Shown here: in pieces, positions 3,254 through 55,514 of the stretch
Numbering within the stretch: position 1 is the stretch's first letter
Layout of the letters: each line of letters opens with the position of its first letter
Origin: Alphaproteobacteria bacterium
Lineage (GTDB): Bacteria > Pseudomonadota > Alphaproteobacteria > Rs-D84
Assembly (NCBI GenBank): GCA_050943575.1
Contig: JBMNPL010000002.1
Location: 8,073-72,072, forward strand
Length of the DNA: 64,000 nucleotides
Direction of reading: 5' to 3'
Notes under the pieces: generated by a model
Databases searched by the model: none
What the model was told of the DNA's origin: nothing
The model's input: only the letters and a program-made list of their open reading frames with translations
Position numbers and translations under genes: made by a program

Positions 3254-3359
3254 ACCTTCAACACAATACAAAGCAATGTTGTCTTTTAATTCTTCAAAAG
3301 TTTCTTTAAAATCAATCACATTGATATGATACCATATTTTTTGATATAATATAAAGAGA

Positions 3360-4346: not shown

Positions 4347-4348
4347 AA

Positions 4349-15860: not shown

Positions 15861-16490
15861 ATGGAAAAGCAAGATATCAGAACATTTGGTAGAATTCATG
15901 GAAAGCGGCTATCTGCTCGTCAACAATATTTAATTGATAATTTACTACCAACCCTGATACCTTTATTTAAAGATAATTCAGAAAAAATTCTAGAAATTGG
16001 CTTTGGTGCAGGAGAACATTTATTAAAATTAGCATCAGAAAACCCCGATAAAATTATTATTGGTGCAGAACCTTTTATAAACGGTGTTGCCAGTTTATTA
16101 TCAAAGATTACTGATAACAATAATAATATAAACTCAGAATTTAATAATATAAGAATTTGGCCAGATGATGTTAGAAAATTAATAAATAATAATGATTTTA
16201 AATTTCAACAAATATGGATTTTACATCCTGATCCGTGGCCCAAGGCACGACATGAAAAACGTAGATTATTATCCAGCGCATTTTTAAATCTTTTGTCCGC
16301 ACGCCTTGAATCAAACGGAAAAATTATAATCGGAACAGATCATTATGAATATTATGATTGGATTATAGAACAGTTACAACAAACAAAATTATCTATTATT
16401 GATGATTGTTTGCCGATTATTAAAACTAGATATCAACAAAAAAATAAAGCCGGAACAATTGTTCCAAAGTATTTAATTTTATCGCTTTAA
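15861..16490 (+). CDS. trmB: tRNA (guanine46-N7)-methyltransferase
   Basis: 209 aa. SAM-binding EIGFGAGEH and the HPDPWPKARHEKRRL motif. Confidence 0.8.
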   Translation: MEKQDIRTFGRIHGKRLSARQQYLIDNLLPTLIPLFKDNSEKILEIGFGAGEHLLKLASENPDKIIIGAEPFINGVASLLSKITDNNNNINSEFNNIRIWPDDVRKLINNNDFKFQQIWILHPDPWPKARHEKRRLLSSAFLNLLSARLESNGKIIIGTDHYEYYDWIIEQLQQTKLSIIDDCLPIIKTRYQQKNKAGTIVPKYLILSL

Positions 16491-19056: not shown

Positions 19057-19860
19057 TTATAATCTTTTCTGATTTTTTAGGTATAATTGCATATTAATAT
19101 TAATTGTGTTTAATTTATCTTTTAAAGATTTAATAGCATCTTCTTCCGAAGATCCTTCCCCCACAACTATTGGGATATCTAATGTATAATCTTCATCTTT
19201 TTCCCAAAATCTTTTTTCTCTATAAAGCTTAGCTGTAGACTCATACGCAATATATGTTGGTCTAACACTAACAGGTGCTGAAAATTCTTCCTCGTATTCA
19301 TTAGAGCTGCTGTAATAATTAGAACTTTTTTTTGGAAAAACTGAGTCATATCCTCTTGATAAATAAAAATTTCCAAAAAAATCATATAAATTTATCGATT
19401 TACCAACAATTAATCTGCCATTAATATCTTTGTCAAATATTATTTTGTGTGCTGTTTGCACCAATGTAGTTGGTGAACCAATATGATTTTTGATATTAAA
19501 TACAGATAATTTTTCCCCAGAAGGTAGAACTATTAAGGATAAATTAAAACACTTTGTTATAATAGCACCATTATCTTTTGCATTCCAAAGAGGAGATGTG
19601 GATTTAAAAACAATTTGTTTTAAATTCTTACAATTATGTATCCCACGAACTTCGATTTTATTAACATTTTTGGGGATTTCAAGAGTTTTAATTTCATCAA
19701 TATTATAAAAAGCTTCGGTATTTATAACTTGCACTGAAGTCGGTATTTTAAAAGTTCCATCTTCTATGTTATTTTTTCTAACTTTTTTTAAAACTTTATT
19801 ATCTTTAGATAGTATCGGTTTAGTATCTACTATTTTTAAGATCGCATCTTTGAATGACAT
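19057..19860 (-). CDS. BspA-type leucine-rich-repeat protein (putative)
   Basis: Repeated IPxxVxxIxxxAFxxCxxLxxIxxP-like units (IPTSVQVINTEAFYNIDEIKTLEIPKNVNKIEVRGIHNCKNLKQIVF). No signal peptide. Start chosen at MSFKD with RBS AAGGGTGG; the track start at 19890 overlaps the upstream OMP. Confidence 0.4.
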   Translation of the reverse strand: MSFKDAILKIVDTKPILSKDNKVLKKVRKNNIEDGTFKIPTSVQVINTEAFYNIDEIKTLEIPKNVNKIEVRGIHNCKNLKQIVFKSTSPLWNAKDNGAIITKCFNLSLIVLPSGEKLSVFNIKNHIGSPTTLVQTAHKIIFDKDINGRLIVGKSINLYDFFGNFYLSRGYDSVFPKKSSNYYSSSNEYEEEFSAPVSVRPTYIAYESTAKLYREKRFWEKDEDYTLDIPIVVGEGSSEEDAIKSLKDKLNTININMQLYLKNQKRL

Positions 19861-19870
19861 AACCACCCTT

Positions 19871-20581
19871 TTAAAATGATATATTGACACGTGTGCCGAA
19901 TTTCATATTATTTTGTTCAAAATCATATTCACCAAAGCCAACATATTGTGTGCGACCATATTGACGAACTAATTTCGCATTTACAATCGTTGTATCAAAA
20001 ATTGGATTTGTTGATTTTCTAAAATCTGCACCCATACCAATACGCCAATTTGAACTTAATCTGAAATAAATATCTGGCATTATATCAATCCAAGCCATCC
20101 CATTTAATTCATCAAAAATCCAACTTGATTTTAAAGCGCCGGATAATGTAACCCAATCCCAACTGCGACCAATACGAACACCACCAAAATAAATATTTTT
20201 ATCAAATCTGGGATCTGCATCACCAGAAACTTTTATTCCACCAAAAAGATCTGATTTAACTGCACCGTTTGACATACGATACATAGCATCAAAACCAAAA
20301 TATGAAAACCCATCATAATCACGTTCATCATTAAAATCTTGTTGATATTTAACGGTTGTACCTAAAACAAATATATCATTTATTCCATAAGCAGCCTTGA
20401 GCCCGACATCCAAAATATCATCACCAAAAGATAATCCGCCACGCATTGTAAAATCACGCGCTTGTTCAAAATACATCGGATCTTCGGTATCAAATATTGC
20501 GGCACTGGCACTGGAAAACAAAGCTATAAGCCCACAAAAAGCAACCCCTGTTAAAACAATTTTGTTTTTAATACAACTCAT
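19871..20581 (-). CDS. outer-membrane beta-barrel protein (putative)
   Basis: 236 aa. Signal peptide (SASA|AIF), alternating hydrophobic beta-strand pattern, C-terminal Phe. Confidence 0.5.
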   Translation of the reverse strand: MSCIKNKIVLTGVAFCGLIALFSSASAAIFDTEDPMYFEQARDFTMRGGLSFGDDILDVGLKAAYGINDIFVLGTTVKYQQDFNDERDYDGFSYFGFDAMYRMSNGAVKSDLFGGIKVSGDADPRFDKNIYFGGVRIGRSWDWVTLSGALKSSWIFDELNGMAWIDIMPDIYFRLSSNWRIGMGADFRKSTNPIFDTTIVNAKLVRQYGRTQYVGFGEYDFEQNNMKFGTRVNISF

Positions 20582-30019: not shown

Positions 30020-30145
30020 ATGAAAAAAAATAAAAAAACTAATTTAAAAAAATGGATATGGATATCTTTGATTTTGATATTACTGGTTTTGATGATAATT
30101 TCATTTCCACCTGTTAGTAATGTATCAGAAGTTGTTTTACAATGA
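30020..30145 (+). CDS. possible 41-aa small membrane protein (not in ORF track)
   Basis: MKKNKKTNLKKWIWISLILILLVLMIISFPPVSNVSEVVLQ. Starts 1 nt after the lptF-family stop and ends in an ATGA overlap with xerD. Confidence 0.2.
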   Translation: MKKNKKTNLKKWIWISLILILLVLMIISFPPVSNVSEVVLQ

Positions 30146-30999
30146 ATCATATTGAAATTTTTTTAGAAATGATGACGGCTGAAAAAGGACGCAGTATTAA
30201 AACATTAGAAGCATACGGACGTGATTTACGTATGGCGGCAGAAGATATTGGGAATTTAACAACTGCAAATAAAAATCAATTACAAAAGTATTTATCCAGA
30301 TTATCGGGAACAGCAACATCTATTGCCAGAAAAGCCAGCGCATTACGTGGATTTTATAAGTTTTTAATATCGGAAAAAATAATAACTGAAAATCCAACAG
30401 AAGGTTTAGAATTACCAAAAAGACAAAAAAAACTACCAAAATTTTTAACTGAACAAGAAGTAGAATTATTAATTTCAAATGCTGGTGATACCAGGAATTC
30501 TGTGCGATTACGGGCAATGTTAGAATTATTATACGCATCAGGTTTGCGTGTATCTGAATTATGCGGATTACCAATGACGGCAATTTTAGGTGATAGATTA
30601 TTAATACATGGTAAAGGCGCCAAAGAACGAATTGTTCCGATACACGATGGTGCCCAAGAAGCGTTGGCAAAATGGTTAAAAGTGCGCGGGGATGTAAATT
30701 CCAAGTATGTTTTTCCATCTGCGTCAAAAACTGGATATATAACACGTGATGGTTTTTATAAAATCTTGAAAAAATGTGCTGTATTATCAGGTATTTCTCC
30801 GGATCGTGTGAGTCCGCATATTTTACGACATTCTTTTGCATCACATTTATTAGCAAATGGTGCAAATTTACGTGCGATTCAAACAATGTTGGGGCATGAA
30901 GATATTGCAACAACACAAATTTATACCCATATAATGCCAGATAAATTAAAAGAAGCTGTTTTTACACATCATCCTATGGCCAAGAAAAATACAAAATGA
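30142..30999 (+). CDS. xerD: tyrosine recombinase XerD/XerC family
   Basis: 285 aa with catalytic R..HxxR..Y residues (ILRHSFASHLL ... IYTHI). Confidence 0.8.
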   Translation: MNHIEIFLEMMTAEKGRSIKTLEAYGRDLRMAAEDIGNLTTANKNQLQKYLSRLSGTATSIARKASALRGFYKFLISEKIITENPTEGLELPKRQKKLPKFLTEQEVELLISNAGDTRNSVRLRAMLELLYASGLRVSELCGLPMTAILGDRLLIHGKGAKERIVPIHDGAQEALAKWLKVRGDVNSKYVFPSASKTGYITRDGFYKILKKCAVLSGISPDRVSPHILRHSFASHLLANGANLRAIQTMLGHEDIATTQIYTHIMPDKLKEAVFTHHPMAKKNTK

Positions 31000-31499: not shown

Positions 31500-31526
31500 A
31501 AACCGGCAAATGCCGGTTTTTTTATT
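31499..31526. terminator. bidirectional rho-independent terminator between convergent genes
   Basis: Hairpin aaccggc-aaat-gccggtt (31501-31518) followed by T7. The reverse side is T/A-rich. Confidence 0.55.
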
Positions 31527-34341
31527 TAATTACCATTTCTTGACCATAGGATGCGACTTTTCTGCCACCGATATAACAATTTATATCTGTTTGTTTATTA
31601 AAGTCTTCTATGGCTTTTTGACGAGCTTCTTCTAGTGCTTGGGCTTCTTTTTGATTAATAGCATTTCCAGCAATCATTCCACCAGCAACAGCACTTACAA
31701 CACCAGTAGTAATAGCACCGATATGAGCACCTTTGGTATCAAAATTTAATAAATGATTTTTTGGATTTTTTGTTTTTGATGTATAATTAGTATTAATATC
31801 ATTATATGTACTTTGACAAAGTTTTAATGCTTTACTTCCGACTGGATCACAATTAGGTGTTTTGGTATTATCAATATAATCACATTCCTGACAAGGATTT
31901 TGTGTACTATAATTCTTACCTTTTTGTTCTATACATTGATGACACTTGTTATATAAAGTTATTTTATCTGCATTAATATTAGTTGAATATCCTCTAGTTG
32001 CGTTTTGTATCGCATTTCCTGCCATTACACCACCCAGACCACCGATAACCAAACTACCCAATGTTGCACCACCAATTCGTAATGTTTTTTGAAGTCCGGT
32101 TAATTTTTCTGAACAATTATGAGTTGATGGAGTTTTACCATCCTTACAAAATTCTATTTCTTCTGCTATCTTACGTTCTATTTTTTCTAGTTGTTCCGTT
32201 GTTAAACCTAAACATTGCATAGTTGTGCCTTTGGGATAATACCGCACAGAATTTTCATTTTCTTTCAATACTTCTTGTACTTTAGCATTATTAGAACGCA
32301 TTGTTACTTTAACAGCACAAAAGCCATCAAATGGGTTATTAGTTGCTGTAACCTTATTCAATCCTTCATATTCATTATCTAACGATTCTATATCGGAAAG
32401 AGATGCCCAAATATAATCTTTGCTGGTGGAACCCTTGATATTGCTATTTTCACAAGCATTTTTGATATCATTGGCTTCGCGTTCTAATACGGAATTTGCA
32501 CGTTTACCAATATCTGCTAATAATCCATCAAAGATACTTTGTTCTTGTGTCGCACAAATTTTTATCTTTGTTGATATCTTTACTGTCGGATCAATCACAT
32601 TACCCGCATTATCTACTTTATCAAAATAAGTTTCAGACACACGACAAATATTGTCCGAAGTTTCGTTATTTGACGTAGCATCTAACCATGCATTACGAAC
32701 ATTGTTAGATGTTCCCCAAGAGTCAGCACTTGTACCTTTACTATTTCTTGCATATTGAACATCAAAATAATCTATACAATCTGTGAATTTTTTAACCTTT
32801 AACATACATAAATCACGTGCCATTTCTGTATCAAAACCACCAACAAATGAACCTGTCGAAGGTAAACCTTTTGATTTATTAATAAAACCTTTTTCAATAG
32901 TCAAATTATTAGTAGTATTATTGTTGGCGATTCTGCCTATCGCCGCAGAACTAGTAATAAAGCAACGTGAAAAATCATTTCCGCATTCGTCTTCTACACA
33001 CTTTTCAACTTGTGCTTGACAACTGGTGCGCATACCAGCAACTGCTTGTTCATTAAATGCTTTTTGTAAATCTGTATCCAAACCAACAATAGCGCCAATT
33101 GAATCATTTGTCCAAACCGCATCCCAAACATCACCATCTGAACCTGAATCTTTATTACGAAATACATCTTTACAATATTGATTATTTTCAATTAAATTCT
33201 TACATTGCCCTGTAATATCATGCGCGGCTTTATTTTTTATACTTACCGTATTTCCAACTTTAGCCAACCCATAACAACGGGCACGCGACCCTTCACCACA
33301 TGCATTAACTGCACAATCTGTTATAGCATTTTTACATTGCTCTACAGAATTTTTTGCTGCTAATGCCGCCCATTCTTTTATTTTAGATTGTGCCATTTTC
33401 CAACGCGCACCAACACCATTATACATAATATCTTGGTATACTTCCTGAATATTAAAACTATCTGTTAAATCAACTTCTTTGGCAGGTTTACCATTTGTAA
33501 CCATAAAACACCATTCATTAGTACCAATAGTATCACGACATTGTTCTTTGATATAATTTTTAACATTGCTATCATCCCAACCCATATTATAAATCCAAGT
33601 TTCCAACATATCTGGATTTAAACGAAGCGTAGTTTCGCCAGATGTTGCAATATTAACCATTTCAGATGCATCTATATCTGAAAATCCAGTTAAAGATATA
33701 CATTTATGCGGTGCACCTTTACAAGCATTTTGAATACAAGCATCTGCAGCCTTATTACAGGTTTTAACACTATTTGCAGCCGCCCAATTTTTACCATCTT
33801 TTATTGCTAAATCAATTCTACTCTCTGTAGCAACAGCAATATCACCTAATGCCGGTGTAAATGTTCTTTTGGTTAAAACAGATTCACCATCACACATTGT
33901 GCGATTTGCAGCCGCCATATCATCTGATGTTGTTACAGAATTTCCAAACAAAGCCTTGATCGCTTCAGCAGGACATTGAGCCAAAAATTCTTGGCACATA
34001 ATACGAGATTTATTAAATTGTTTTAAGTTATAACAAAGTTCAAAATGTTCACCGCACACGTTATCTTGGCGCAAACATGATTCATATCTATCAATACAAC
34101 GACCTGATGCCAAACGTTCAGGTAATGGATTTGCACATGTTGCCACCAAACCAGCATCCGCAGAAGGCTTGGTATTAATTACAGGTGCTATTTGCATTGT
34201 GTTTGGACGTGCCGTTGGTAATCGGCTTGTCGCGCTGGGACGTGATAAAGTCGCCATACCAATAGCCCTCGCCGGTACAGTGTAAATTCCTGATACCAAA
34301 GGTATCATTAAACTGATAATTATTGCTTTGTTTATTCTCAT
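31522..34341 (-). CDS. large Cys-rich secreted/surface protein with two C-terminal glycine-zipper segments
   Basis: 939 aa from the Met of the signal peptide MRINKAIIISLMIPLVSGIYTVPARA; the track ORF starts 15 codons upstream. Very many paired Cys. Two GxxxG-rich hydrophobic segments (GGATLGSLVIGGLGGVMAGNAI; GAHIGAITTGVVSAVAGGMIAGNAI). No recognisable enzymatic motif. Confidence 0.5.
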   Translation of the reverse strand: MRINKAIIISLMIPLVSGIYTVPARAIGMATLSRPSATSRLPTARPNTMQIAPVINTKPSADAGLVATCANPLPERLASGRCIDRYESCLRQDNVCGEHFELCYNLKQFNKSRIMCQEFLAQCPAEAIKALFGNSVTTSDDMAAANRTMCDGESVLTKRTFTPALGDIAVATESRIDLAIKDGKNWAAANSVKTCNKAADACIQNACKGAPHKCISLTGFSDIDASEMVNIATSGETTLRLNPDMLETWIYNMGWDDSNVKNYIKEQCRDTIGTNEWCFMVTNGKPAKEVDLTDSFNIQEVYQDIMYNGVGARWKMAQSKIKEWAALAAKNSVEQCKNAITDCAVNACGEGSRARCYGLAKVGNTVSIKNKAAHDITGQCKNLIENNQYCKDVFRNKDSGSDGDVWDAVWTNDSIGAIVGLDTDLQKAFNEQAVAGMRTSCQAQVEKCVEDECGNDFSRCFITSSAAIGRIANNNTTNNLTIEKGFINKSKGLPSTGSFVGGFDTEMARDLCMLKVKKFTDCIDYFDVQYARNSKGTSADSWGTSNNVRNAWLDATSNNETSDNICRVSETYFDKVDNAGNVIDPTVKISTKIKICATQEQSIFDGLLADIGKRANSVLEREANDIKNACENSNIKGSTSKDYIWASLSDIESLDNEYEGLNKVTATNNPFDGFCAVKVTMRSNNAKVQEVLKENENSVRYYPKGTTMQCLGLTTEQLEKIERKIAEEIEFCKDGKTPSTHNCSEKLTGLQKTLRIGGATLGSLVIGGLGGVMAGNAIQNATRGYSTNINADKITLYNKCHQCIEQKGKNYSTQNPCQECDYIDNTKTPNCDPVGSKALKLCQSTYNDINTNYTSKTKNPKNHLLNFDTKGAHIGAITTGVVSAVAGGMIAGNAINQKEAQALEEARQKAIEDFNKQTDINCYIGGRKVASYGQEMVIK

Positions 34342-34416
34342 AACTCCCACCATTCTTGTCAATATTCTATCATAAAAATATAACAATATAAAGAGAAAAA
34401 AGTAAAAAATAGATTT

Positions 34417-36189
34417 TCACTTTTTCTCTAAAAGTTCTTGAACAGCGGCTGCAAAATCTGGGGCTTTTTTTAGAAAACTGCCAGCAACCAGAAAATCTGC
34501 ACCTGCGACCCAACATTTTTTCGCGGTTTCCGGATTTATTCCGCCGTCAACACTTATTTTAAACTTTAATCCATGCTTGCGTCTAGTATTATTTAAAGAA
34601 GCAATTTTTGATATTGATTCTTCTATAAAAACTTGCCCCGATTTTCCTGGAATAACAGACATTATCATAACCTCATCAATATTTCGTAATATCGGAGCAA
34701 TAACTTCTAAATCAGTATTTGGATGTAAAGCAACACCCCCACGTTTACCCGCTGCACGTATTTTATTTAATGCACGTCTTACACCATTTGTACCAGATGA
34801 AACAATAATAGTATCTGCCCCACCCGCAATAGCCTCGGTCGCCCAATTAACTGGATTTTCCGTCATTAAATGAACATGTAAATGTGATTTAGTCCGAGAA
34901 CGAATAAAACGAAGTTCATCAATACCACTGGCAATATTATCAACATAAAAGCCATCCATTATATCAACATGAATCATATCTATGCCCGCAGATTCAAACA
35001 TAGTATAAGTATCTAAATTTCGCATATCCCAAACCAAAGTGCTGGGCATAATTGGAATAAATTTTTTCCGGCGCGAAAAAATCCTCCATCTTAAAGGCGC
35101 GGTTAAAAATCCAAAAAATTTATCCCATTTTTTTCTACGTTCCAAGTATGCTTTAACCCGTGATGATTCAGAATTCCAAATAAATTCTGCAAATGAATTA
35201 ACAATTCCAAATGCGCCCAAATTTTCAACCGGTATATTAAATTCTTTTTCTAAAACATCATCCAGTCCCATAATTCCAGACCCGCCGCCGCTTATATAAA
35301 TTTTAATCGGATTATACTTTTCAATTACTGGAATAAGTATTTCTTGAACTTGACTTAAAATCTCAGAAAAAATACTTTCTGTAATTTCATTCAAATCAAA
35401 TCTGGTTATATCATATTTTGCATCCGCCGGAGTAAACCTGTCCATATCTGTTTGTATTAAACTCATGCTGGAAACTTTTAACCTTTCTGCTTCGGATATC
35501 GGTAAATTAAAAGCCTGTGCAACTGATTTGGTTATATCAGCCCCGCCAATTGGTATTTTATTAATTAATATCGGACCACGTGCTGTCCATAAAGATACAC
35601 TTGTAAATTCTGCACCAAAATCTATGAATATTGAATTTTCTGATGCCAATCGTGCAGTTGACCCCAATAAAAACATAGGATCAAAAAAACCACCAGATCT
35701 AAGATGTGCCGAATGTAATACAGATTTTATATAAGATAAATCTTGAGAATTATATGCTATCACATTAAATACAGAATGTAATGCCCTATCAGTATGTCCA
35801 AGTGGATTTGAAATGTTATGAAAACCACCTAAATCATAACGTAAAGGAATTATATGAAGAACTGAGTTTTCACCTTGGAAAAAATCAAAAATTTGCTCTA
35901 AAATATCGTTTTGTGTAATTTTATGTTCTGCAGACCATATACTTTTTTTTGAAACAATTTTTGATTCAATCTGACCAAAATTCCCCGTAACAAATGCTTT
36001 ATCAAATCTTGTGCCAATTTGTTCTTCAAGACTATCAACCGCTGTTTTTATAGCATATGCTAAATCACTAGATTCTGTATATGCACTTGCAGATGTTTTA
36101 ATCCGTCCAAAACAAACCCTTGTGGCGACAGCATGAACTCCGCTGGAGCCTATATCTAAACATAAAAAAGAACCCTCGGTTAAGTTCAT
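34417..36189 (-). CDS. ftsA: in-frame fusion of cell-division protein FtsA (aa 1-380) and ribulose-phosphate 3-epimerase Rpe (aa 381-590)
   Basis: N-terminus aligns to FtsA (actin fold, CLDIGSSGVHAV...; IYISGGGSGIMGLDD) and ends in a basic amphipathic tail (WDKFFGFLTAPLRWRIFSRRKKF). It continues without a stop into a complete Rpe (MPSTL...HVDIMDGFYVDN...SVDGGIN...VAGSF). Confidence 0.65.
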   Translation of the reverse strand: MNLTEGSFLCLDIGSSGVHAVATRVCFGRIKTSASAYTESSDLAYAIKTAVDSLEEQIGTRFDKAFVTGNFGQIESKIVSKKSIWSAEHKITQNDILEQIFDFFQGENSVLHIIPLRYDLGGFHNISNPLGHTDRALHSVFNVIAYNSQDLSYIKSVLHSAHLRSGGFFDPMFLLGSTARLASENSIFIDFGAEFTSVSLWTARGPILINKIPIGGADITKSVAQAFNLPISEAERLKVSSMSLIQTDMDRFTPADAKYDITRFDLNEITESIFSEILSQVQEILIPVIEKYNPIKIYISGGGSGIMGLDDVLEKEFNIPVENLGAFGIVNSFAEFIWNSESSRVKAYLERRKKWDKFFGFLTAPLRWRIFSRRKKFIPIMPSTLVWDMRNLDTYTMFESAGIDMIHVDIMDGFYVDNIASGIDELRFIRSRTKSHLHVHLMTENPVNWATEAIAGGADTIIVSSGTNGVRRALNKIRAAGKRGGVALHPNTDLEVIAPILRNIDEVMIMSVIPGKSGQVFIEESISKIASLNNTRRKHGLKFKISVDGGINPETAKKCWVAGADFLVAGSFLKKAPDFAAAVQELLEKK

Positions 36190-46275: not shown

Positions 46276-47826
46276 ATGTTTATAAATAAATTAAAAAACT
46301 TTTTTTATATATTATTTACACTTGGTGTTTTATATTCTTGCACCTCTGTAAAACCCGTTCAAATAAGGGATGCGACTGATTTAGATGCACCTATTTTTGA
46401 AATCGGAACAACAAAAAATATTGCTGTTTTGTTGCCCGAATCAAATTGGGGAGAATCAATTAAAACAAGTATTCAAATGGCATTTATACAAAGTAAATCT
46501 AATGATATAAATGTTAGATTTACAGATTTATCCGGTTCATCAGAAGAAAAATCTCAACAAATAAAATCAGCATTACTAAATAAACCAGATTTAATTATAG
46601 GACCAATTTTTTCAGAAGAAGTTGAAATACTGCGCCAACAAATAAATTCAAATATACCTGTTTTATCTTTTAGTTCTGATACCAATGTTTTAGGAAATGG
46701 AATTTTAACAATGTCTTTGATACCAACCCAAAGCGTTGAAACAATTGTGCGCCATATAATTACTGATGGTAAAAAAGAAATAATGATTATAACCCCAGAT
46801 AATAAAACTGGATATATAATGGGTAATGCTGCACTAGATGCTGCAAATATTTATGGACTAGATGTTGCCGGATTTTATTATTATAAACCCGGAAATATGG
46901 AAAATATGAAAAATGTATCTGAAAATATGGCAATGTTTAACGCACGAAATAATGCAAATACACGTGCAAAAGAAATCTTGTCCGATATACTTAACAAACA
47001 AATAATTTCAGAATCAGATAAAATATACGTAAATGAACTTTTAGAAAATAGAAAAAAATCTGACACTATTGGTGATGTACCATATGACGCTATATTATTT
47101 TTAGGCAATGCATCCGATTCTAAAGCACTTGGATCATTTATGCGATATTTTGATGTGCCCGCTAAAAAAGTTAAATTCTATGGAACAGCAATGTGGGATA
47201 ATTCAGAAATGTTTCGTGATATAACAATGTCCGGTGCTAGTTTTGCAGCAATGCCCGCAATTTCACCAGAATTCACAAATGCATATCGCACAATTACAGA
47301 TAAAGAACCTGAAAGAATTAGCACAATGGGATATGATGCGGCAATGCTCGCAAAAAAAGCATTGTTATCCGGACGTAATGTATCCGAATTTTTATCGGAC
47401 CCATCAGGGTTTAGAGGATTAGATGGACTGATGAGATTGCAAGCGAATGGTATATCAGAACGTGCTTTACAAATAATGGTATTAGATGGTAGCGGGACAC
47501 CCAAAATAATAAAAACATCAGCAACTAACTTTATAAAACCATTATATCAAATTACAAAACAAAATAATAATAAACCAAACGAAATAAAAATATCTGCCGG
47601 TATAAATCCAATGTATTATTTACAATTACCAGAAAGTGTTCGTGGAAAATATAGCGCAAAAACTTACAGAGAAAATGAATATATTAAATCAAAAATAGAA
47701 ATAAAATCTGAAGAAATTACAATATTACCTGAAGATAGTTCTGAACCTATTATAGATCCAGATTTTCAACCAATAGAATTAAATCAAGTAAATAGAACAA
47801 TGGTTGATGAAATAGAAATACACTAA
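46276..47826 (+). CDS. LpoA/YraM-like periplasmic lipoprotein (type-1 periplasmic-binding fold)
   Basis: 516 aa with a signal peptide and Cys (LYSC). Divergent from rsmI, as in the rsmI/lpoA arrangement of other proteobacteria. Confidence 0.4.
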   Translation: MFINKLKNFFYILFTLGVLYSCTSVKPVQIRDATDLDAPIFEIGTTKNIAVLLPESNWGESIKTSIQMAFIQSKSNDINVRFTDLSGSSEEKSQQIKSALLNKPDLIIGPIFSEEVEILRQQINSNIPVLSFSSDTNVLGNGILTMSLIPTQSVETIVRHIITDGKKEIMIITPDNKTGYIMGNAALDAANIYGLDVAGFYYYKPGNMENMKNVSENMAMFNARNNANTRAKEILSDILNKQIISESDKIYVNELLENRKKSDTIGDVPYDAILFLGNASDSKALGSFMRYFDVPAKKVKFYGTAMWDNSEMFRDITMSGASFAAMPAISPEFTNAYRTITDKEPERISTMGYDAAMLAKKALLSGRNVSEFLSDPSGFRGLDGLMRLQANGISERALQIMVLDGSGTPKIIKTSATNFIKPLYQITKQNNNKPNEIKISAGINPMYYLQLPESVRGKYSAKTYRENEYIKSKIEIKSEEITILPEDSSEPIIDPDFQPIELNQVNRTMVDEIEIH

Positions 47827-48809
47827 CTTAAAATCTCTTGTAATTCTTTCATATCATCCGGTAATTTAGATTTAAACTTTATAAATTCGTCAGTTATCGG
47901 ATGTTTTAATTCCAAAACTTCAGCATGTAACATTTGTCCATGATGTGTTTTTATAAATTCTAATAATTCCGGATCTTTTACACTACCCAACCGAGAACTA
48001 CCACGACCATAAACAGGATCACATACAACAGGAAAACCATGAGCAGATAAATGAACGCGTATTTGATGTGTTCGTCCCGTTAGTAAAGTACAACGAAGTT
48101 TAGCAATACCAACATCAGACCAAACATTAATCGCTTCAACTTTGGTTTCAGCCGGCTTTCCACCAACTTTTAAAATAGTCATTTTTTGGCGATTTCTGGA
48201 ACTGCGACCAATATTACCAACTATATCTGCCTCTAACCAATTCGGAATTCCCCAAACAAAAGCAATATATTTTCTTGTTAAATTATGGCTGGCAAATGTT
48301 TTTGTTAATGCTTTATACGCCATATCTGATTTAGCAAAAATTACTATCCCACTTGTATCTTTATCCAAACGATGAACAACCCCCGGACGCATTAAACCAC
48401 CATGTATAGATAAATTGGTGTGTGATAAAACACGATGAACTAATGTATCCGTTTCACGTCCTGCACCCGGATACATCGCAATACCACGCGGTTTATTTAC
48501 AACAATAATATCCTTATCTTCAAATAAAATATCTAGATCAAATTTAATTCTATTATTTATAAATAATGATTGTTGTTGTTCTTTTTTTGGAATAATAACA
48601 CTTATTTGATCATCAAATTTTATTTTATCAGAAAATTTTATTTCGCCTGTGTTTGGCATTTTTTTTACAACAAATTTTTGTATCTCACTACGTGAAAATT
48701 CCGGCATTTTATCTACTAAAAACTTATCCAGACGCAGACCAATATCTGACTCTTTAGCAACAAAAGTTCTTGTATCATTCATTCCAATTTTTTCCCTTGA
48801 TACAATCAT
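47823..48809 (-). CDS. rluD: RluA-family 23S rRNA pseudouridine synthase (RluD-like)
   Basis: 328 aa. N-terminal S4 domain. Catalytic motif HRLDKDTSGIVIFAK. Confidence 0.8.
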   Translation of the reverse strand: MIVSREKIGMNDTRTFVAKESDIGLRLDKFLVDKMPEFSRSEIQKFVVKKMPNTGEIKFSDKIKFDDQISVIIPKKEQQQSLFINNRIKFDLDILFEDKDIIVVNKPRGIAMYPGAGRETDTLVHRVLSHTNLSIHGGLMRPGVVHRLDKDTSGIVIFAKSDMAYKALTKTFASHNLTRKYIAFVWGIPNWLEADIVGNIGRSSRNRQKMTILKVGGKPAETKVEAINVWSDVGIAKLRCTLLTGRTHQIRVHLSAHGFPVVCDPVYGRGSSRLGSVKDPELLEFIKTHHGQMLHAEVLELKHPITDEFIKFKSKLPDDMKELQEILS

Positions 48810-49230
48810 TTAATATGATTTTTATTTCACGTCCGTTCCCAGTTATTTGACAATTTATTATACCTGTTGTTTTTTTCTGAGAATCATTTCTGGACGCTTC
48901 GCGCCATGCAAACCGAATCTGATCAGGACGTTTTACACAAGTAATATTCATAACAGCTTTTTTATCTTCGGCTGAAAACTTACTTGGAGAAATCCATACT
49001 CGTGCGGTTTCTGCCTGCCCTATACATGGAAAACTATCCAAAAAATAAAGTTCCATACCATTATTCCCAATAGATTTATCGCGAATAAAAGAAATGTCAT
49101 ATTGACTATAACGAAGACCAGTAACACTTTCCCAGTCTGTACTGGTAGAAAATAAATTTACTGAATTTGCATCATATACAGAAACACAAATCAAAAAAAA
49201 TAAAGAAAATAAAAATAATAATCTTTTCAT
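48775..49230 (-). CDS. hypothetical secreted protein
   Basis: 151 aa with a signal peptide (FFLICVSVYDANS). Last gene of the pilin-like operon, immediately before rluD. Confidence 0.4.
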   Translation of the reverse strand: MKRLLFLFSLFFLICVSVYDANSVNLFSTSTDWESVTGLRYSQYDISFIRDKSIGNNGMELYFLDSFPCIGQAETARVWISPSKFSAEDKKAVMNITCVKRPDQIRFAWREASRNDSQKKTTGIINCQITGNGREIKIILNDCIKGKNWNE

Positions 49231-49244
49231 ATTTAACTTCCTTA

Positions 49245-49724
49245 TTAATCACTTAATTCTACTGAAACTTTTACAAAACCCGTCGGCACATTATGAACTT
49301 GAACTGAAAAGTTTGCTTTTTCACCAGAACCTAATAATGGTACTGGAGGTGTAAATTTTTGCGATGATACTTCTATGTTTTTATCGTTTTTAATAATAAC
49401 TATTAAATCTGGCACACCATGTAATTTTTCCGATTTATTTTCAATAATACCAGAAACAACTAAAACATCATCAACTGGATGTGCTGATTTCATATGAATA
49501 AATAATGGACCTTGTTTATCTAATGGTGCCCATAAAACCAGCGCAATTAAAGAAAAAGCAGCCAATAATAAAACCAAAACAGATAATAAAAAAACTAAAA
49601 AATTTCTATTTTTTCGTATAATTGGTTTACGCCAAACATGACCACATACAGCACATTTGAATATGTTATTACTTATACTATTAATAGAATAACTTACTTT
49701 GCAAAAAGGGCATGTTATTTTCAT
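49245..49724 (-). CDS. zitP: ZitP-like protein: N-terminal MJ0042-type zinc ribbon, TM helix, C-terminal DUF3426 domain
   Basis: 159 aa. CPFC...(17)...CAVCGH zinc ribbon, then a basic stretch and TM (FLVFLLSVLVLLLAAFSLIALVLW), then a beta-rich periplasmic domain. Confidence 0.5.
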   Translation of the reverse strand: MKITCPFCKVSYSINSISNNIFKCAVCGHVWRKPIIRKNRNFLVFLLSVLVLLLAAFSLIALVLWAPLDKQGPLFIHMKSAHPVDDVLVVSGIIENKSEKLHGVPDLIVIIKNDKNIEVSSQKFTPPVPLLGSGEKANFSVQVHNVPTGFVKVSVELSD

Positions 49725-49771
49725 TTTTTATTCATTTATCGTTGTTAATAATATCTATATTATATTTTGTA

Positions 49772-51076
49772 TTACTCTAAATTCAAGTTATTATATTTTT
49801 GAGTCACACGATTTTTAATTTCATTTATTGCCTTGGTATAATCTGAAATTGTAGCATTATTGTTTGCCGCAACACTTCTTATTATTGTTTCCGTTTCAGT
49901 TTTTATAGTTTTTGATTCTTTGTTAATCGCTGATTTTAATAATGGATTCAACACGCCACATAAAATGTCTGATAGGTGTGCCACATCTGTTTGTAAATCC
50001 CAATAATATGAAGAATCTGCAGGATCTTCTATACGTTCAGTTATATTTATTTTTGGTGCAACAGAACCAGTATATCCAACAGTTACCGTTCTGGCAGTAA
50101 CTCTACCTCTTGTTACATCCATAATATTACTAATTTTTAAAGTTGCAGATTTATCGCTACCATTAACTGATAACCAATTTAAATTTAAATCTCTAACCCA
50201 TAATTCATTAGCTTCAAGTCTGGAAAATCTACCTGTGTCACCTAATAATAATTCTCCAGAAATTTCCGCGTTTCTTGAATCTGATGTAAGTGTACCCATC
50301 ACCAATGTTTCCCCTGTAATTTTTAATTGTGTATCTAATTCTGTCCGTGGTGAAATTTGAACTTTTTGAGCAACAATCGAATCAGATTTAAGAATTTCTG
50401 TAAAATCTGAATTACGTGCATCTATTGATAAAATATTGTTTATATTATTTCCACCCATTAGTAAATTTGAAGACATGGAAGAATCAAAGGAATTTTTAGA
50501 AGGTGTGCGCCATAAAAAATCACCACCAGATAAAAGTGTTTTCGTCCCACCAACAATAGAATTTTTACCCAATTGAGCATCAAAAATATTTGTCCTAGAA
50601 CGCCATGTACCAAATGCACCATGTGCATGATTTTTATCTATAAATCCTGATGATACACCACCAAGCTCTGCTATTTCACGAGTGCGTAATGGGGATATAT
50701 CTGCAGAATTATATATAACCATACCAGATAATACAGAATGCCCCGCCATATCCCGAGATTTTATTATGCGCGCCTGAAATTTATCATGATCTTTTGGAAT
50801 ATTCCCATATTTAGCTAAATCACGAATTTTAACCTTGGTAATCACACGCCCCGTTGGTTCAAATAATTTGATTTTATGTGCAATCATATATCTTTCTAAT
50901 GCATCTTTAGTTATATCAATATCTCTTGCTATACGAACATTTTCAGCACGTTTAGCACGATCATTTAACTCGCGCATAACAAACGGTAAAATAGAAGCAG
51001 CAATTGCTAAAGATAAAAGAATTTCTAGCAACATCCCGCCAAATTCATTCTTAAAAAATTTATTTTTATTCATCAT
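49772..51076 (-). CDS. large type IV prepilin-like protein (third of three)
   Basis: 434 aa. Basic leader MMNKNKFFKNEFG, then GMLLEILLSLAIAASILPF (G|xxxxE with E at +5) and a hydrophobic alpha1-like segment. The remainder is beta-rich with Ser/Thr/Asn repeats. Confidence 0.45.
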   Translation of the reverse strand: MMNKNKFFKNEFGGMLLEILLSLAIAASILPFVMRELNDRAKRAENVRIARDIDITKDALERYMIAHKIKLFEPTGRVITKVKIRDLAKYGNIPKDHDKFQARIIKSRDMAGHSVLSGMVIYNSADISPLRTREIAELGGVSSGFIDKNHAHGAFGTWRSRTNIFDAQLGKNSIVGGTKTLLSGGDFLWRTPSKNSFDSSMSSNLLMGGNNINNILSIDARNSDFTEILKSDSIVAQKVQISPRTELDTQLKITGETLVMGTLTSDSRNAEISGELLLGDTGRFSRLEANELWVRDLNLNWLSVNGSDKSATLKISNIMDVTRGRVTARTVTVGYTGSVAPKINITERIEDPADSSYYWDLQTDVAHLSDILCGVLNPLLKSAINKESKTIKTETETIIRSVAANNNATISDYTKAINEIKNRVTQKYNNLNLE

Positions 51077-51093
51077 GTTTTATTACTTGTAAA

Positions 51094-52341
51094 TTACATA
51101 TCTTGCCATCCACTGGTAATTATTGGCAAAAAATCGTTATTATTTGGTACAATAAGCGTTTCACCAATTTCATTATTATTTACCTTTTTTAAAAACAAAT
51201 TAGAAAATCTGGGACCATTAATCGATGGGAAATACCATCTCCCTAACCTAATTGGAGCACCGCCTGTACTAGAATATAATAATTCACCCGAGATTGTTAT
51301 TCCGAAATCTTTTTGAAAAATTAAATTATCAGTGGATAAAAAAGGTGTCGCAATAGATTGAGCGCGAATACCCGCAAAGCTTGTAATTATCCTTGAACTT
51401 TCGGACCGAACAATCATATCATTTTGAACATGTATTGGGCCATTTATATTTACCATATCTACAATTATATCTCCGCGAGAAGACCATGATGATCCGGATG
51501 ATGTACCAATACCTTTTAATTTATCCGCTGTAATATTTCTGAAACCAGAAATATCATCGCTTACATTTATCGATTCAAACTCTGCATTAGATGCATCTAT
51601 TGACATACCTTCGGGAAAAAAGATCTCTTTTGTTTTAATAATTCCCGATTCAACAAACCATGTTTTTACATTTGTTGAATTTAAAGTTTTGGCATTTATT
51701 TTTCCAATATCAAAAATATTATTCTTTACCATATCTATATCTCGATACATAGTATTCAATTCTATATTATCTAAATATATTCTATGTAAATATTTATACG
51801 AATCATCTTTTCCTAAAATGTCAGATATTCTAAAAATTAAATCGCCTTCGCTAAATAATTCTGATGAAATACCCCATCCCGCAGAACTAATAGCTTCACC
51901 ACCAGATTCTACAATTGCAGCATCTGTACCTAAATTCCTTACAATATTTGCTACTCTAATTTTTTTTATTTTAATCGGTCTAAATGCAATATATGCATTT
52001 ATAGAAGTTCCACTAGAATCTTCGCGTTTCTCAATAAATCCGGCATAAGGGTCTAATAAACGATTATCACCTTTATTAAGAATTTTTAGTTGATTTTGAT
52101 TAAATTCTACTTGTGCATTTGATGGCCAATCAGATTGATTTTTACGAACATAAGCCATAATAGGATCGCCCCAAGCTATAATATGCTTTGATTCGCTAAT
52201 ATCCGCAATCTGATTACTCATATTTATCGCACCATTATATGCAAATGGTATTATTGCACCAACAATTGCTATAGCCAGCAGAGTTTCTATCAACCCTGCA
52301 CCTTTTTGTTCTTTATAAAAATCTCTGTTTTTGTTTTTCAA
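51094..52341 (-). CDS. large type IV prepilin-like protein (second of three)
   Basis: 415 aa. Leader MKNKNRDFYKEQKG, then mature AGLIETLLAIAIVGAIIPFAY, a textbook class III signal with E5. Confidence 0.5.
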   Translation of the reverse strand: MKNKNRDFYKEQKGAGLIETLLAIAIVGAIIPFAYNGAINMSNQIADISESKHIIAWGDPIMAYVRKNQSDWPSNAQVEFNQNQLKILNKGDNRLLDPYAGFIEKREDSSGTSINAYIAFRPIKIKKIRVANIVRNLGTDAAIVESGGEAISSAGWGISSELFSEGDLIFRISDILGKDDSYKYLHRIYLDNIELNTMYRDIDMVKNNIFDIGKINAKTLNSTNVKTWFVESGIIKTKEIFFPEGMSIDASNAEFESINVSDDISGFRNITADKLKGIGTSSGSSWSSRGDIIVDMVNINGPIHVQNDMIVRSESSRIITSFAGIRAQSIATPFLSTDNLIFQKDFGITISGELLYSSTGGAPIRLGRWYFPSINGPRFSNLFLKKVNNNEIGETLIVPNNNDFLPIITSGWQDM

Positions 52342-52345
52342 TTAA

Positions 52346-53782
52346 TCACTCACAATTAGTTTGTCCATTTATTTTACATTGCTTTATGTTTATACGACGC
52401 TCTAATCTTTGCCAAAAAACGAACTGACAAACAATGTTTTGAGATATGGAATTTGAATTATATGCCGGGGCTGAAGGTAAAGAAGAAATTATTGTTTTAC
52501 AACTAACTACTTCACCATCATCTAGATCTGGATTTTTAAGTATTTGAAATTCATCATTATTTATTGTATCAGATAAAACATCCGGCAAAACAGAAACACC
52601 AGCCGGTCTAATATCCATAACTATTGCGCCATCAATACCAGATAATAAAGCACTTGAAACCTGATCTCGTAAAGTTATAAATGCTGTGCTTATTTTTTGT
52701 GCCTCTATCCCACTTTTTGTCGCATATGTTAATTCATATTCATCAATAAATACATCTTGACCACGTGATGCGTTTATAAATCCATTTATTTCTATATGTT
52801 CTGTATCTATAGAAATATTATTTAAAATAACATCACTATGAACATTCCAATCATACATCCCATAAAATCCAGTTCTTCCGACAGACATTGATAAAGAATT
52901 TATTAAAGCTGTATTAACATAAACATAACCTGGTAATCCATATTTAAACAAATATCGCCCTGATAACGAATTAGTTTTTAAATTACCACGATAAATATTT
53001 AATGGATTATCGCCATTGTTTGATTGAAATACTGCACGATCAGAAGTTAAATAATTTATTTTATTTTTAAATCTTCTGTTATCACTAGAACCAACAATAG
53101 AAAGAGTATTAAAATTTCCATTATTTAAGTCTGCGTTTTTAGATACTAATGATGTGATATTTTTTATAGAAAAATTTCCCATATTTAAATCTGTATAAAA
53201 TTTTGACCTATCAGGATCATTCGTTTTTCGACGAACCAATTCTGAAAAATCATCATTAGTTGATACCAAAACATAAATAGCAGAAATATCCGGTTTTATC
53301 CCATAATCTTTTAAATTCTTATTCCATCCGCCTACCCCTTGTAAAACACCATTCTTATCCGATGTTGCAGCATTAGGCCCAATACGCGATATTAACTCTC
53401 TACGTTTTACTTCTGAAAGATCTCCATTATGCAAAATTATTAAACTTAATATTTCAGATTCATTTTTCACTGTTAAAAGTGATATTTTTTGTCCTATAAT
53501 TGTTTGAGGAATAAACCCTAATGGTAATCCAAATGGTTCTAATAAATCTGAAAAGTCTTCACCAGCAATATTTTGTTGACCATAAGCAAGATTATCTTTA
53601 CTTACTCTAATAAATTCTCGAGCAGCACGTACCGCACTATTAGTTTGCTGTGCAATCGCATTTAACGAATAGTCATTTTTTCTTGATGATAGTTTTTGTG
53701 CCAAAAAAGGCATAAAAATCATAACTAAAGCAACTGCTAACAAAGCTTGCAGTAAAAAATTTCCACGGGATTCGCTTTGCAA
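52346..53782 (-). CDS. large type IV prepilin-like protein (first of three; Q at +5)
   Basis: 478 aa. Short leader MQSESRG, then NFLLQALLAVALVMIFMPFL. As in minor pseudopilins of the GspK/PilX type, Q replaces the usual E5. Confidence 0.4.
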   Translation of the reverse strand: MQSESRGNFLLQALLAVALVMIFMPFLAQKLSSRKNDYSLNAIAQQTNSAVRAAREFIRVSKDNLAYGQQNIAGEDFSDLLEPFGLPLGFIPQTIIGQKISLLTVKNESEILSLIILHNGDLSEVKRRELISRIGPNAATSDKNGVLQGVGGWNKNLKDYGIKPDISAIYVLVSTNDDFSELVRRKTNDPDRSKFYTDLNMGNFSIKNITSLVSKNADLNNGNFNTLSIVGSSDNRRFKNKINYLTSDRAVFQSNNGDNPLNIYRGNLKTNSLSGRYLFKYGLPGYVYVNTALINSLSMSVGRTGFYGMYDWNVHSDVILNNISIDTEHIEINGFINASRGQDVFIDEYELTYATKSGIEAQKISTAFITLRDQVSSALLSGIDGAIVMDIRPAGVSVLPDVLSDTINNDEFQILKNPDLDDGEVVSCKTIISSLPSAPAYNSNSISQNIVCQFVFWQRLERRINIKQCKINGQTNCE

Positions 53783-53828
53783 AATATGTCCCCCCTACGT
53801 ATTTGATAATAACTATAAAAAAATTTTA

Positions 53829-53857
53829 TTGCAATTGGTTTTAACACGTTGTAATAT
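53829..53857 (+). promoter_or_regulatory. sigma70-like promoter (TTGCAA, 17 nt spacer, TAATAT) upstream of the DUF4167 gene
   Basis: Hexamers with ideal spacing, 68 nt upstream of the ATG at 53925, in the divergent intergenic region. Confidence 0.3.
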
Positions 53858-53924
53858 CAAAATATCGTGAAGTGATTTAATGATTTACTTACGACTTATT
53901 TCCATTATATAAAAAAGAAACAAT

Positions 53925-54221
53925 ATGCAAAACAATAATAATAAAAAACAAATGTCAGTTGGGCTTATGATTCAACGTTGTCATAGATTGCGTCAAAAAC
54001 GGAAACAATATATGGACCAAGCCCGCCAAACAAGCGATTCTATTGAACGTGAAAGAATATTACAAATGGCGGAACATTATGGACGTGTTGTAAACGAAGA
54101 ACAATCTAAAATAGATACCTCGCGTGATCCACGTGATAAATGTAATACAACTTCTGAATCTGTAGAAGAAAAATTAGACGAAGAAGAAAACGGATTTCCC
54201 GACTTTATTTCTCAACTATAA
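53925..54221 (+). CDS. DUF4167-like small basic protein
   Basis: 98 aa. Motif YMDQARQTSDSIERERILQMAEHYGRV, similar to the alphaproteobacterial DUF4167 consensus (...ArdA...GDrv.AE...QHAEHY). Confidence 0.45.
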   Translation: MQNNNNKKQMSVGLMIQRCHRLRQKRKQYMDQARQTSDSIERERILQMAEHYGRVVNEEQSKIDTSRDPRDKCNTTSESVEEKLDEEENGFPDFISQL

Positions 54222-54230
54222 GGTTATAAT

Positions 54231-55514
54231 ATGCTAGATATAAAATTTATTCGCGAAAATCCAAATAAAGTTAAATGGGCTTGTAAGGTTAAAGGGTTTG
54301 ACGATAATATTGATAAAATTTTAGAATTAGATAAACGTGTTCGTGCATTAAAAACCAGTACGCAAACAAAAGTTGCTGAAAAAAATAAAATCACTGCACA
54401 AATTGCAAATGCGACACAAGACACACGAACAACTCTGATTACACAATCAAAACAAATTAATGAACAAATATCTAATGAATTGCAAGAGCTTACAAATGCT
54501 GAAACTATACTAAATGAATTACTTTTATCTATACCCCAAATTCCTAGTGATAATGCCCCAATTGGTAAAGATGATAATGACAATATAGAAGTTAAACGTA
54601 TCGGGACACCACGTGAATTTTCTGGATTTACACTACGTCCACAGTGGGAATTATTAGATATGAACAATTGGTGGATCCCAGAAAAAATCTCCGAAATATG
54701 TGGAACCAGAACTTATGCATTAATGGGTGAAGCAGCAGAACTAGATCTTGCTATACAAACATTTGTTATACAAAAATTAATAACCAAAGGTTTTAAATTT
54801 ATTCAAGTTCCTGCAATTGTAAAAACTAAACCGATTTTTGATGCTGGGCATTTTAAAGGTTCCGACCCCAAAATTATGGAAAATGATGTATTTCAATTAA
54901 CTAGTTTTGATAGATGTTTAGGCGGAACTGCAGAAATTGTTTTAAACTCATTACATAATAATGAAATTTTAAACGAAAAACAATTGCCTATTAAATATGT
55001 GGGTTTTAGCGAATGTTTCCGTAAAGAAGCCGGTGCTGCCGGTCGCGATACTCGCGGAATTATGCGTATTCATGAATTTCATAAAGTTGAACAATATGTT
55101 TTTTGCACACCTGAACAATCTGACGAAATGCACGAACATTTACTAAATAATCTATGTGAAGTTATGGAAGATTTTGAGTTACCTTATCGTGTTTTGGAAT
55201 GTTGTACTGGTGATATGGGATTTAATAAAATTAAAATGAATGATGTTGAGGCTTGGGTTCCAAGTGAAGGTCGATATCGAGAATTAGGTAGTTGTTCGTC
55301 AATTGGAGAATTTCAAGCACGCAGAACCAATACTCGTTATCGTGAAAATAGTACAAACGAAATTAAATTCTGCGCAACATTAAACAATACAGGAATTGCA
55401 CTGCCACGCGCAATTGTGCCAATTATTGAAAATCATCAAAACGCGGATGGATCTGTTAATATTCCAAAAGCTTTACAACCTTTAATGAGTGGAAGAACTA
55501 AAATAGGTGGATAA
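54231..55514 (+). CDS. serS: serine--tRNA ligase
   Basis: 427 aa. N-terminal coiled-coil arm and class II core motifs (FRKEAGAAGRDTRGIMRIHEF). Confidence 0.9.
   Translation: MLDIKFIRENPNKVKWACKVKGFDDNIDKILELDKRVRALKTSTQTKVAEKNKITAQIANATQDTRTTLITQSKQINEQISNELQELTNAETILNELLLSIPQIPSDNAPIGKDDNDNIEVKRIGTPREFSGFTLRPQWELLDMNNWWIPEKISEICGTRTYALMGEAAELDLAIQTFVIQKLITKGFKFIQVPAIVKTKPIFDAGHFKGSDPKIMENDVFQLTSFDRCLGGTAEIVLNSLHNNEILNEKQLPIKYVGFSECFRKEAGAAGRDTRGIMRIHEFHKVEQYVFCTPEQSDEMHEHLLNNLCEVMEDFELPYRVLECCTGDMGFNKIKMNDVEAWVPSEGRYRELGSCSSIGEFQARRTNTRYRENSTNEIKFCATLNNTGIALPRAIVPIIENHQNADGSVNIPKALQPLMSGRTKIGG

Follow-up and report, generated by a model that had tools for sequence, protein, structure and literature searches.

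Three consecutive genes in a 64,000-nucleotide (nt) stretch of DNA (the window) from an alphaproteobacterium of the order Rs-D84 (Candidatus Enterousia and relatives) encode large pilin-like proteins, to which an earlier note had drawn attention. We named them A, B and C and found that their products diverged from one another as paralogs and share homology with PilV, which is the adhesin at the tip of IncI/R64-type thin pili. Together with two small genes, D and E, that follow them, and with type IVb pilus genes in relatives, they suggest that these bacteria carry the parts of a pilus on their chromosome.

Layout of the locus

Gene A (52346..53782, minus strand) codes for a PilV-family minor pilin-like protein of 478 amino acids (aa), in which the leader MQSESRG is followed by NFLLQALLAV, with Gln at position +5. 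Genes B (51094..52341, minus strand; 415 aa) and C (49772..51076, minus strand; 434 aa) encode proteins of the same kind, reading KG/AGLIE and FG/GMLLE, respectively, around the expected cleavage site (marked by the slash), each with Glu at +5. Three tightly spaced minus-strand genes were what the earlier note had described, and its coordinates, lengths and quoted N termini all proved correct. Gene D (49245..49724, minus strand; 159 aa) encodes a bitopic protein in which a single transmembrane helix separates an N-terminal zinc ribbon (CxxC...CxxC) from a periplasmic domain of the DUF3426 type, as in a short version of ZitP. It is followed by gene E (48775..49230, minus strand; 151 aa) for a small exported protein that has a signal-like N terminus and four conserved cysteines and belongs to no known family. 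Intergenic gaps are 4 nt (A-B), 17 nt (B-C), 47 nt (C-D) and 14 nt (D-E), and this tight spacing suggests that A to E are co-transcribed. Gene E overlaps by 35 nt with the gene of an RluD-type pseudouridine synthase (47823..48809, minus strand; PseudoU_synth_2 at orthologous positions), a conserved neighbour that is probably not a functional part of the pilin module.

Upstream of gene A lies a divergent intergenic region of 142 nt (53783..53924), the likely site of the operon promoter, beyond which a DUF4167-like protein of 98 aa is encoded on the plus strand (53925..54221; DUF4167 E values of 1e-4 to 9e-4 in five orthologs). A sigma-70-like candidate at 53931-53904 on the minus strand matches 10 of 12 positions, in a scan that was at chance level as a whole. 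Both promoter and terminator scans of the locus were uninformative, giving chance-level results in AT-rich DNA, and an Rfam scan of the window revealed no RNA family.

PilV homology and the prepilin-type N terminus

Direct Pfam and NCBIfam scans of the window copies yielded nothing above threshold (B reached Shufflon_N at an E value of 0.013), each copy lying below the Pfam cut-off, and the identity of A, B and C rests on their orthologs and on profile-profile comparison. Two C orthologs (P0262 and P0266) pass the cut-off of Shufflon_N (PF04917), with 27.8 versus 27.5 bits and an E value of 2.3e-6 over residues 52-294; an A ortholog gave a sub-threshold match to the same family (E value of 1.3e-4), and two A orthologs carry the name PilV at NCBI. 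When a C ortholog was searched by tblastn against 7.3 Gb of plasmid sequence, the matches were weak (best E value of 2e-4), and all 20 matches listed fell on annotated pilV genes. Profiles were then compared by hhalign with six plasmid PilV proteins from IncI/K-type and related plasmids. This gave 98.9% for C (E value of 2e-17, 310 columns), 97.8% for B (6.8e-13, 204 columns) and 97.6% for A (3.5e-12, 188 columns), and every alignment begins at the RG/F..LE cleavage motif and spans a common YL.R...N.M.T.L.MGG..I.N. Compared pairwise with each other, A, B and C gave 98.4-99.0% over 294-355 columns. These data indicated that the three proteins are ancient paralogs within the PilV family.

Gene C has 70 homologs, and the NCBI protein identical to it is labelled 'type II secretion system protein'. 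With the C profile, HMMER retrieved 557 relatives from 1.84 billion representative proteins. The distant ones align over the N-terminal ~250 residues only and retain G-x4-E, with E invariant and G at 90% or more in their alignment, and 8 of 46 that were sampled are strong Shufflon_N proteins (best E value of 8e-34). The best sequence match of the profile in the PDB was a Geobacter pilin, in register at Gly and Glu5.

PilV of R64-type thin pili (Shufflon_N; NCBI name 'shufflon system plasmid conjugative transfer pilus tip adhesin PilV') resembles A, B and C in several respects. It is of similar size (400-490 aa), has a class III-type N terminus of the form RG/FxLLE, is homologous to them over its N-terminal 200-310 residues, and works with partners of the PilO, PilP, PilQ, PilR and PilS type, as A, B and C would, judging from their relatives. 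The differences lie mainly in the genetic arrangement. PilV is a single gene with invertible C-terminal segments on a conjugative plasmid, within the pil operon (pilL-V), whereas here three fixed paralogs reside on the chromosome of a reduced genome, apart from the machine genes except in two relatives (loci L050 and L057), where the two are adjacent. In the region 48500-54300, only chance-level AT-rich repeats were found, with no sfx-like repeats and no adjacent recombinase; the nearest tyrosine recombinase (30142-30999 of the window) is about 19 kb away. A shufflon at the locus, with meaningful repeats and an Rci-type recombinase nearby, was thus rejected.

Two other kinds of pilin-like protein were considered and rejected. 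TadE/F/G pseudopilins of Tad/Flp systems had come into question because of the alphaproteobacterial host and the ZitP-like neighbour, but no TadE-family match was obtained, and both homology and predicted fold are those of type IVb PilV. Type II secretion pseudopilins had been suggested by the NCBI label, but A, B and C have no Gsp family match, and the partner genes found in relatives are PilO-, PilP-, PilQ-, PilR- and PilS-like.

In predicted structures, the N-terminal domains of A, B and C resemble type IVb pilins and the minor pilins TcpB and CofB, with a long N-terminal alpha-helix packed on an antiparallel beta-sheet. The pilin fold, which the earlier note had proposed to look for, is seen in these models. 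TcpB of the toxin-coregulated pilus of Vibrio cholerae and CofB of colonization factor antigen III of enterotoxigenic Escherichia coli are single large type IVb minor pilins, and the models of A, B and C appear similar to them in combining a pilin domain with extra beta-rich domains, whereas at the sequence level no similarity to TcpB or CofB was detected. The C-terminal halves were modelled at low confidence, with only faint beta-solenoid and adhesin-like matches; the beta-rich, repeat-like character previously ascribed to them is thus faintly visible and not firm. Four invariant cysteines are located near the C terminus of A.

A common register is shared by A, B and C, namely a basic leader followed by G-x4-[E/Q]-x12-P, in which the 12 residues are mostly hydrophobic and the leader is 6-24 residues long across the three families. 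In a six-frame motif scan of the window, A, B and C were the only real genes with this register, and it was kept across about 80 Rs-D84 species. Gly at -1 is nearly invariant in A, B and C, with at least 90% in the C sequences. Glu at +5 is invariant in B (E19) and at least 90% conserved in C (E18). No exception to Pro at +18 occurs in the alignments of B and C, and in that of A it is at least 90% conserved. At +5, gene A has Gln instead, which is invariant in a 20-sequence alignment and conserved to at least 90% in a 92-sequence alignment; the Glu rule thus does not hold for A. Three substitutions were real: Ser replaces the Pro in gene A of both L008 and L009, and the B protein of L079 has Asp at +5. 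Most of the other orthologs missed by the motif scan are accounted for by start-codon choice or by F to L/V after the Pro. A class III-type N terminus on all three proteins, as first proposed, is supported by this conserved cleavage-type motif.

The +5 residue deserves comparison with other pilus tips. Glu5 normally pairs with the subunit above, and GspK lacks it within the GspK-I-J tip, as Korotkov and Hol reportedly described in 2008. The tip role of GspK-I-J in type II secretion systems has been described (PMC7248040). The loss of Glu5 in A is thus GspK-like; however, unlike the GspK-GspI-GspJ tip and the type IVa tips of the PilX/PilV/PilW type, A, B and C are paralogs of each other and of IncI PilV and not of GspI, GspJ or GspK, and all are large (415-478 aa).

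Synteny and type IVb machine genes in relatives

The source of the DNA had been taken for an endosymbiont-like alphaproteobacterium; it is an alphaproteobacterium, and it was placed in Rs-D84, gut bacteria with genomes of 0.7-1.6 Mb. The order is uncultured; its published genomes span 0.67-1.6 Mb and encode neither flagella nor a respiratory chain and only an incomplete glycolysis, and its members are believed to rely on partner organisms (PMC12306168). When species-representative genomes were scanned with the A family, 253 relatives were obtained; the 80 best are metagenome-assembled genomes from gut, rumen and termite gut, including many of Candidatus Enterousia and one chromosome of 716,531 bp. 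Some Rs-D84 records are filed as 'uncultured Muribaculaceae bacterium' or 'Bacteroides fragilis', namely those of loci L006, L008, L009, L024 (OZ246409.1, 716,531 bp) and L040.

Synteny was examined at 85 loci from relatives, including 80 species representatives (the best 80 of the 253). It is strict: the divergent DUF4167-like gene and the series A-B-C-D-E-RluD occur in this order in 81-85 of the 85 loci, with D after C in 82, E after D in 81, and the RluD-type gene after E in 81. The co-conservation of the trio with a zitP-like gene, which the earlier note had proposed to check, was thus confirmed. Identity to the window proteins ranges from 39 to 71% for A, 31 to 66% for B, 35 to 71% for C, 27 to 64% for D and 32 to 71% for E. 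The DUF4167-like gene, present at 84 of the loci with 45-86% identity, is better conserved than the pilin-like genes.

Two more distant lineages, represented by L175 (7220-11470, G+C content of 35%) and L178 (5447-9809, 37%), carry A-like, B-like and C-like genes in the same order. There, recO follows the trio, D and E (and hence the ZitP-like gene) are not in place, and the A-like protein keeps Glu at +5, in contrast to the Gln of Rs-D84. It follows that the trio is old and that Gln5 of A and the association with D and E are later features.

Three PilV homologs with divergent C-terminal halves could also be interchangeable tip adhesins, one per pilus and each with its own specificity. They would then be the hard-wired counterpart of the variants made by the R64 shufflon, which yields seven PilV C-terminal variants. 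There are neither shufflon repeats nor an adjacent recombinase at the locus, and therefore any diversity of tips would have to come from separate genes; a one-per-pilus arrangement also has a precedent in TcpB, which starts assembly at about one copy per pilus (PMC5207764). However, all three genes stand in the same order in every genome examined, the two distant lineages included, which fits an obligate complex better, and the loss of Glu5 in A alongside its retention in B and C suggests that the proteins occupy different structural positions. We regard alternative tips as unlikely.

Gene D in the window matched its families below threshold only, with E values of 1.5e-4 for Zn_ribbon_4, 7.6e-3 for the MJ0042 finger and 0.06 for FxLYD. 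Among its orthologs, Zn_ribbon_4 was detected in 38 of 40 and DUF3426 in 31 of 40 (best E value of 2e-9), with one transmembrane helix between the two, and the ZitP-like architecture proposed for D thus holds at the level of the family. ZitP of Caulobacter crescentus is built in the same way, from an N-terminal CxxC...CxxC zinc ribbon, a single transmembrane helix and a periplasmic DUF3426 domain. The last of these is required for pilus biogenesis in Caulobacter, where ZitP binds PopZ and recruits CpaM (PMC5182063). D is much shorter, with 159-175 aa versus 311 aa, and has almost no linker between zinc ribbon and membrane helix. Furthermore, ZitP serves a Tad/Cpa (type IVc) pilus via CpaM, whereas the neighbours of D are type IVb-like. 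As for gene E, five orthologs were compared with Pfam and no family was found; its protein consists of an N-terminal hydrophobic, signal-like segment with the four cysteines behind it, and no similarity to the secreted proteins CofJ and TcpF was detectable.

To look for a machine, proteins of an IncK/IncI-type pil operon were searched against Rs-D84 loci. In L050 and L057, the strand opposite to gene A carries a machine cluster at a distance of 2-9 kb, comprising a PilR-type platform, a PilQ-type ATPase (E value of 7.6e-39 to IncI-type PilQ), a PilP-like and a PilO-like protein, and a pilin of 152 aa that begins MKSQSG/RSLIEV and matches plasmid PilS major pilins at 2.6e-6. In 64 of the 85 loci, the gene for this PilS-like pilin follows closely on dnaX, about 2 kb upstream of the trio. 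In L050 (7423-7881, minus strand), the PilS-like gene begins on the dnaX stop codon, on the strand opposite to gene A. Genes for an OmpA-domain-like lipoprotein and for a coiled-coil protein, which may be Skp/OmpH-like as judged by eye, come after the PilS-like gene; the window and its nearest relatives contain none of the three.

The ATPase has 175 relatives in metagenomes, the best 80 of which share 73-91% identity. It belongs to a conserved operon that encodes a 134-aa lipoprotein, PilO (PAP_PilO, 40.2 bits), a PilP-like protein, the ATPase and the platform, and that, in most Rs-D84 contigs, lies directly after the lipid A genes lpxK-lpxC on the same strand. Examples are found at L098 (6472-12660), L145 (2996-4767) and L152 (2334-3260); the 134-aa lipoprotein belongs to no known family. 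PilL, PilM and the PilT transglycosylase gave no match, or none above noise, in the 165 Rs-D84 loci read (about 2.7 Mb, a few neighbourhoods per genome). Taken together, the Rs-D84 lineage carries type IVb machine genes that are scattered over at least three loci. Genes of type IVb pili are usually clustered (PMC7248040).

Pfam annotation of about 45 other open reading frames (ORFs) of the window returned housekeeping families only, among them FtsK, SecDF, MutL, LptF/G, FtsA/Q, aminoacyl-tRNA synthetases, RecA and KdsA/B, with no pilus ATPase, platform, peptidase or secretin, in agreement with the earlier statement that the window lacks pilus machinery. Two ORFs on the minus strand join functions that could reflect gene fusion or in-frame read-through in a compact genome, one of 657 aa (5519-7492) combining YbeY with apolipoprotein N-acyltransferase and the other of 590 aa (34417-36189) combining FtsA with ribulose-phosphate 3-epimerase. 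Pfam was blank for four successive ORFs (270, 328, 168 and 147 aa) at 2657-5295 and for a 954-aa ORF at 31522-34386. A 400-aa protein with a phage-lysozyme domain (16487-17689, minus strand) and a 277-aa protein with BspA-type leucine-rich repeats (19057-19890, minus strand), the latter followed by two ORFs without a Pfam match, may form a surface- or cell-wall-related cluster.

A putative tip complex and what it would mean for Rs-D84

We reasoned that the trio supplies the minor pilins, PilV-related tip proteins, of a type IVb pilus whose genes are scattered over the chromosome, a reading to which we give a probability of about 70%. The locus had been put forward as an undescribed system; this did not hold, because A, B and C are recognisable PilV homologs and relatives encode PilO, a PilP-like protein, a PilQ-type ATPase, a PilR-type platform and a PilS-like pilin, that is, the matching parts of a known kind of machine.

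In the mechanism we propose, the hydrophobic N-terminal helix would insert each of A, B and C in the inner membrane, and a prepilin peptidase would cleave them after the conserved Gly. The three would then join in a complex that primes a type IVb pilus and comes to sit at its tip. The shaft of this pilus would be built from the PilS-like 152-aa major pilin, and assembly would be driven by the PilQ-type ATPase, the PilR-type platform, PilO and the PilP-like protein, all encoded elsewhere on the chromosome. We would place the protein of gene A as the first and topmost subunit because Gln replaces in it the Glu that pairs with the subunit above; B and C, which have Glu5, would dock below. The divergent beta-rich C-terminal halves would form the exposed binding surface. 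With its DUF3426 domain in the periplasm, D would probably aid in positioning the complex or in putting it together, and E may act as a partner that is either periplasmic or secreted. Such a filament would likely be used by these metabolically dependent gut bacteria with tiny genomes for attachment to a partner cell or surface.

CofB and TcpB offer precedents for such a tip: CofB is a trimeric initiator at the end of a type IVb pilus and binds secreted CofJ (PMC6048534), and TcpB starts assembly (PMC5207764). TcpB and CofB are encoded by single genes, and CofB forms a homotrimer, whereas here three distinct paralogs occur in a fixed order, which suggests a heterotrimer of A, B and C, a guess drawn from that analogy.

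Several observations weigh against this interpretation. The residue at +1 is small or polar (N, A, S or G), unlike the F of PilV, and type IV prepilins usually have Phe, Met or Leu after the Gly. The Pfam model N_methyl (PF07963), which the earlier note had named as a check, gave no match to A, B or C at E values up to 1 and only weak ones in relatives (0.11 for P0081 and 0.0036 for the best of 46 distant relatives); this model covers 27 positions and is tuned to F or M at +1. The PilS-like pilin was not found in the window or in the closest relatives. In the window's own genome, no machine gene or small pilin has come to light, since the window contains none and the short flanks beyond both of its ends, read from identical contigs, carry housekeeping genes only. 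Searches by hidden Markov models, by phmmer and by a GxGD scan found no A24 prepilin peptidase and no secretin in the same 2.7 Mb of Rs-D84 sequence, which samples a few neighbourhoods per genome and therefore does not establish their absence. The adhesin idea for the poorly modelled C-terminal halves rests on analogy. Finally, the single survey of genomes that covers Rs-D84 lists type IV pili for a different lineage and not for this one (PMC12306168).

The missing secretin brings in another explanation, namely, that the proteins prime a periplasmic pseudopilus, a short type II secretion-like or uptake-like endopilus that stays in the periplasm and exports or imports substrates. No secretin was found near any pilus gene, NCBI applies its type II secretion label to C, the first subunit resembles GspK in lacking Glu5, and type IVb pili secrete proteins too, such as TcpF and CofJ (PMC6048534, PMC5207764). 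Yet the machine parts are those of type IVb systems (PAP_PilO, the PilS-like pilin and the PilQ-like ATPase) and not Gsp proteins, the nearest homologs and predicted folds are those of surface-pilus proteins, and the absence of a secretin covers the neighbourhoods that were read, not whole genomes. A pseudopilus of this kind appears quite unlikely to us.

The missing peptidase, in turn, would be accounted for if A, B and C were relic pilins, uncleaved bitopic proteins of the inner membrane with an envelope role outside any filament, whose N terminus is merely a membrane anchor. The position of the trio among housekeeping genes, the overlap of the operon with the pseudouridine synthase gene, and the scattering of genes that other type IVb systems keep together would be in line with such a fate. 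A plain anchor, however, would not preserve Gly at -1, Glu or Gln at +5 and Pro at +18 while identity elsewhere in the protein drops to 30-45%, and the ATPase, platform and major pilin are strongly conserved in the lineage. We consider a relic highly improbable.

A bolder version of the pilus reading can also be drawn up. Patescibacteria are thought to latch onto the cells they depend on, and Rs-D84 might do likewise with a stripped-down type IVb filament. Its tip would be an obligate A/B/C heterotrimer capped by the Gln5 protein and positioned by a miniature ZitP, and its secretin and perhaps its A24 peptidase would have been lost or replaced by unrecognisable proteins. That all of this holds at once seems doubtful.

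What sets the locus apart from known systems is that three fixed PilV paralogs, one of them without Glu5, stand in place of a shufflon, that a miniature ZitP is encoded in the same operon, that the machine genes are scattered, and that the host lineage has no previously reported pili. For the family, a single type IVb tip pilin turned into three fixed paralogs would form a bridge between the homotrimeric CofB/TcpB and the heterotrimeric GspK-I-J models. The presence of D adds a second, independent association of a ZitP-type DUF3426 protein with a type IV filament, and the arrangement as a whole is a reminder that clustering of type IVb genes is not obligatory.

For the organism, the three PilV-family proteins, their ZitP-like neighbour and the machine of the relatives are the first sign that Rs-D84 builds a pilus. 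Rs-D84 is a widespread gut lineage suspected to live off partner cells (PMC12306168). The trio, which is conserved in 80 species representatives (the best 80 of 253), is a concrete candidate for contact with such cells, and the tip module occupies 4 kb in a genome that has hardly any room left. Microbiome researchers could follow these genes and use their products as targets for antibodies and microscopy.

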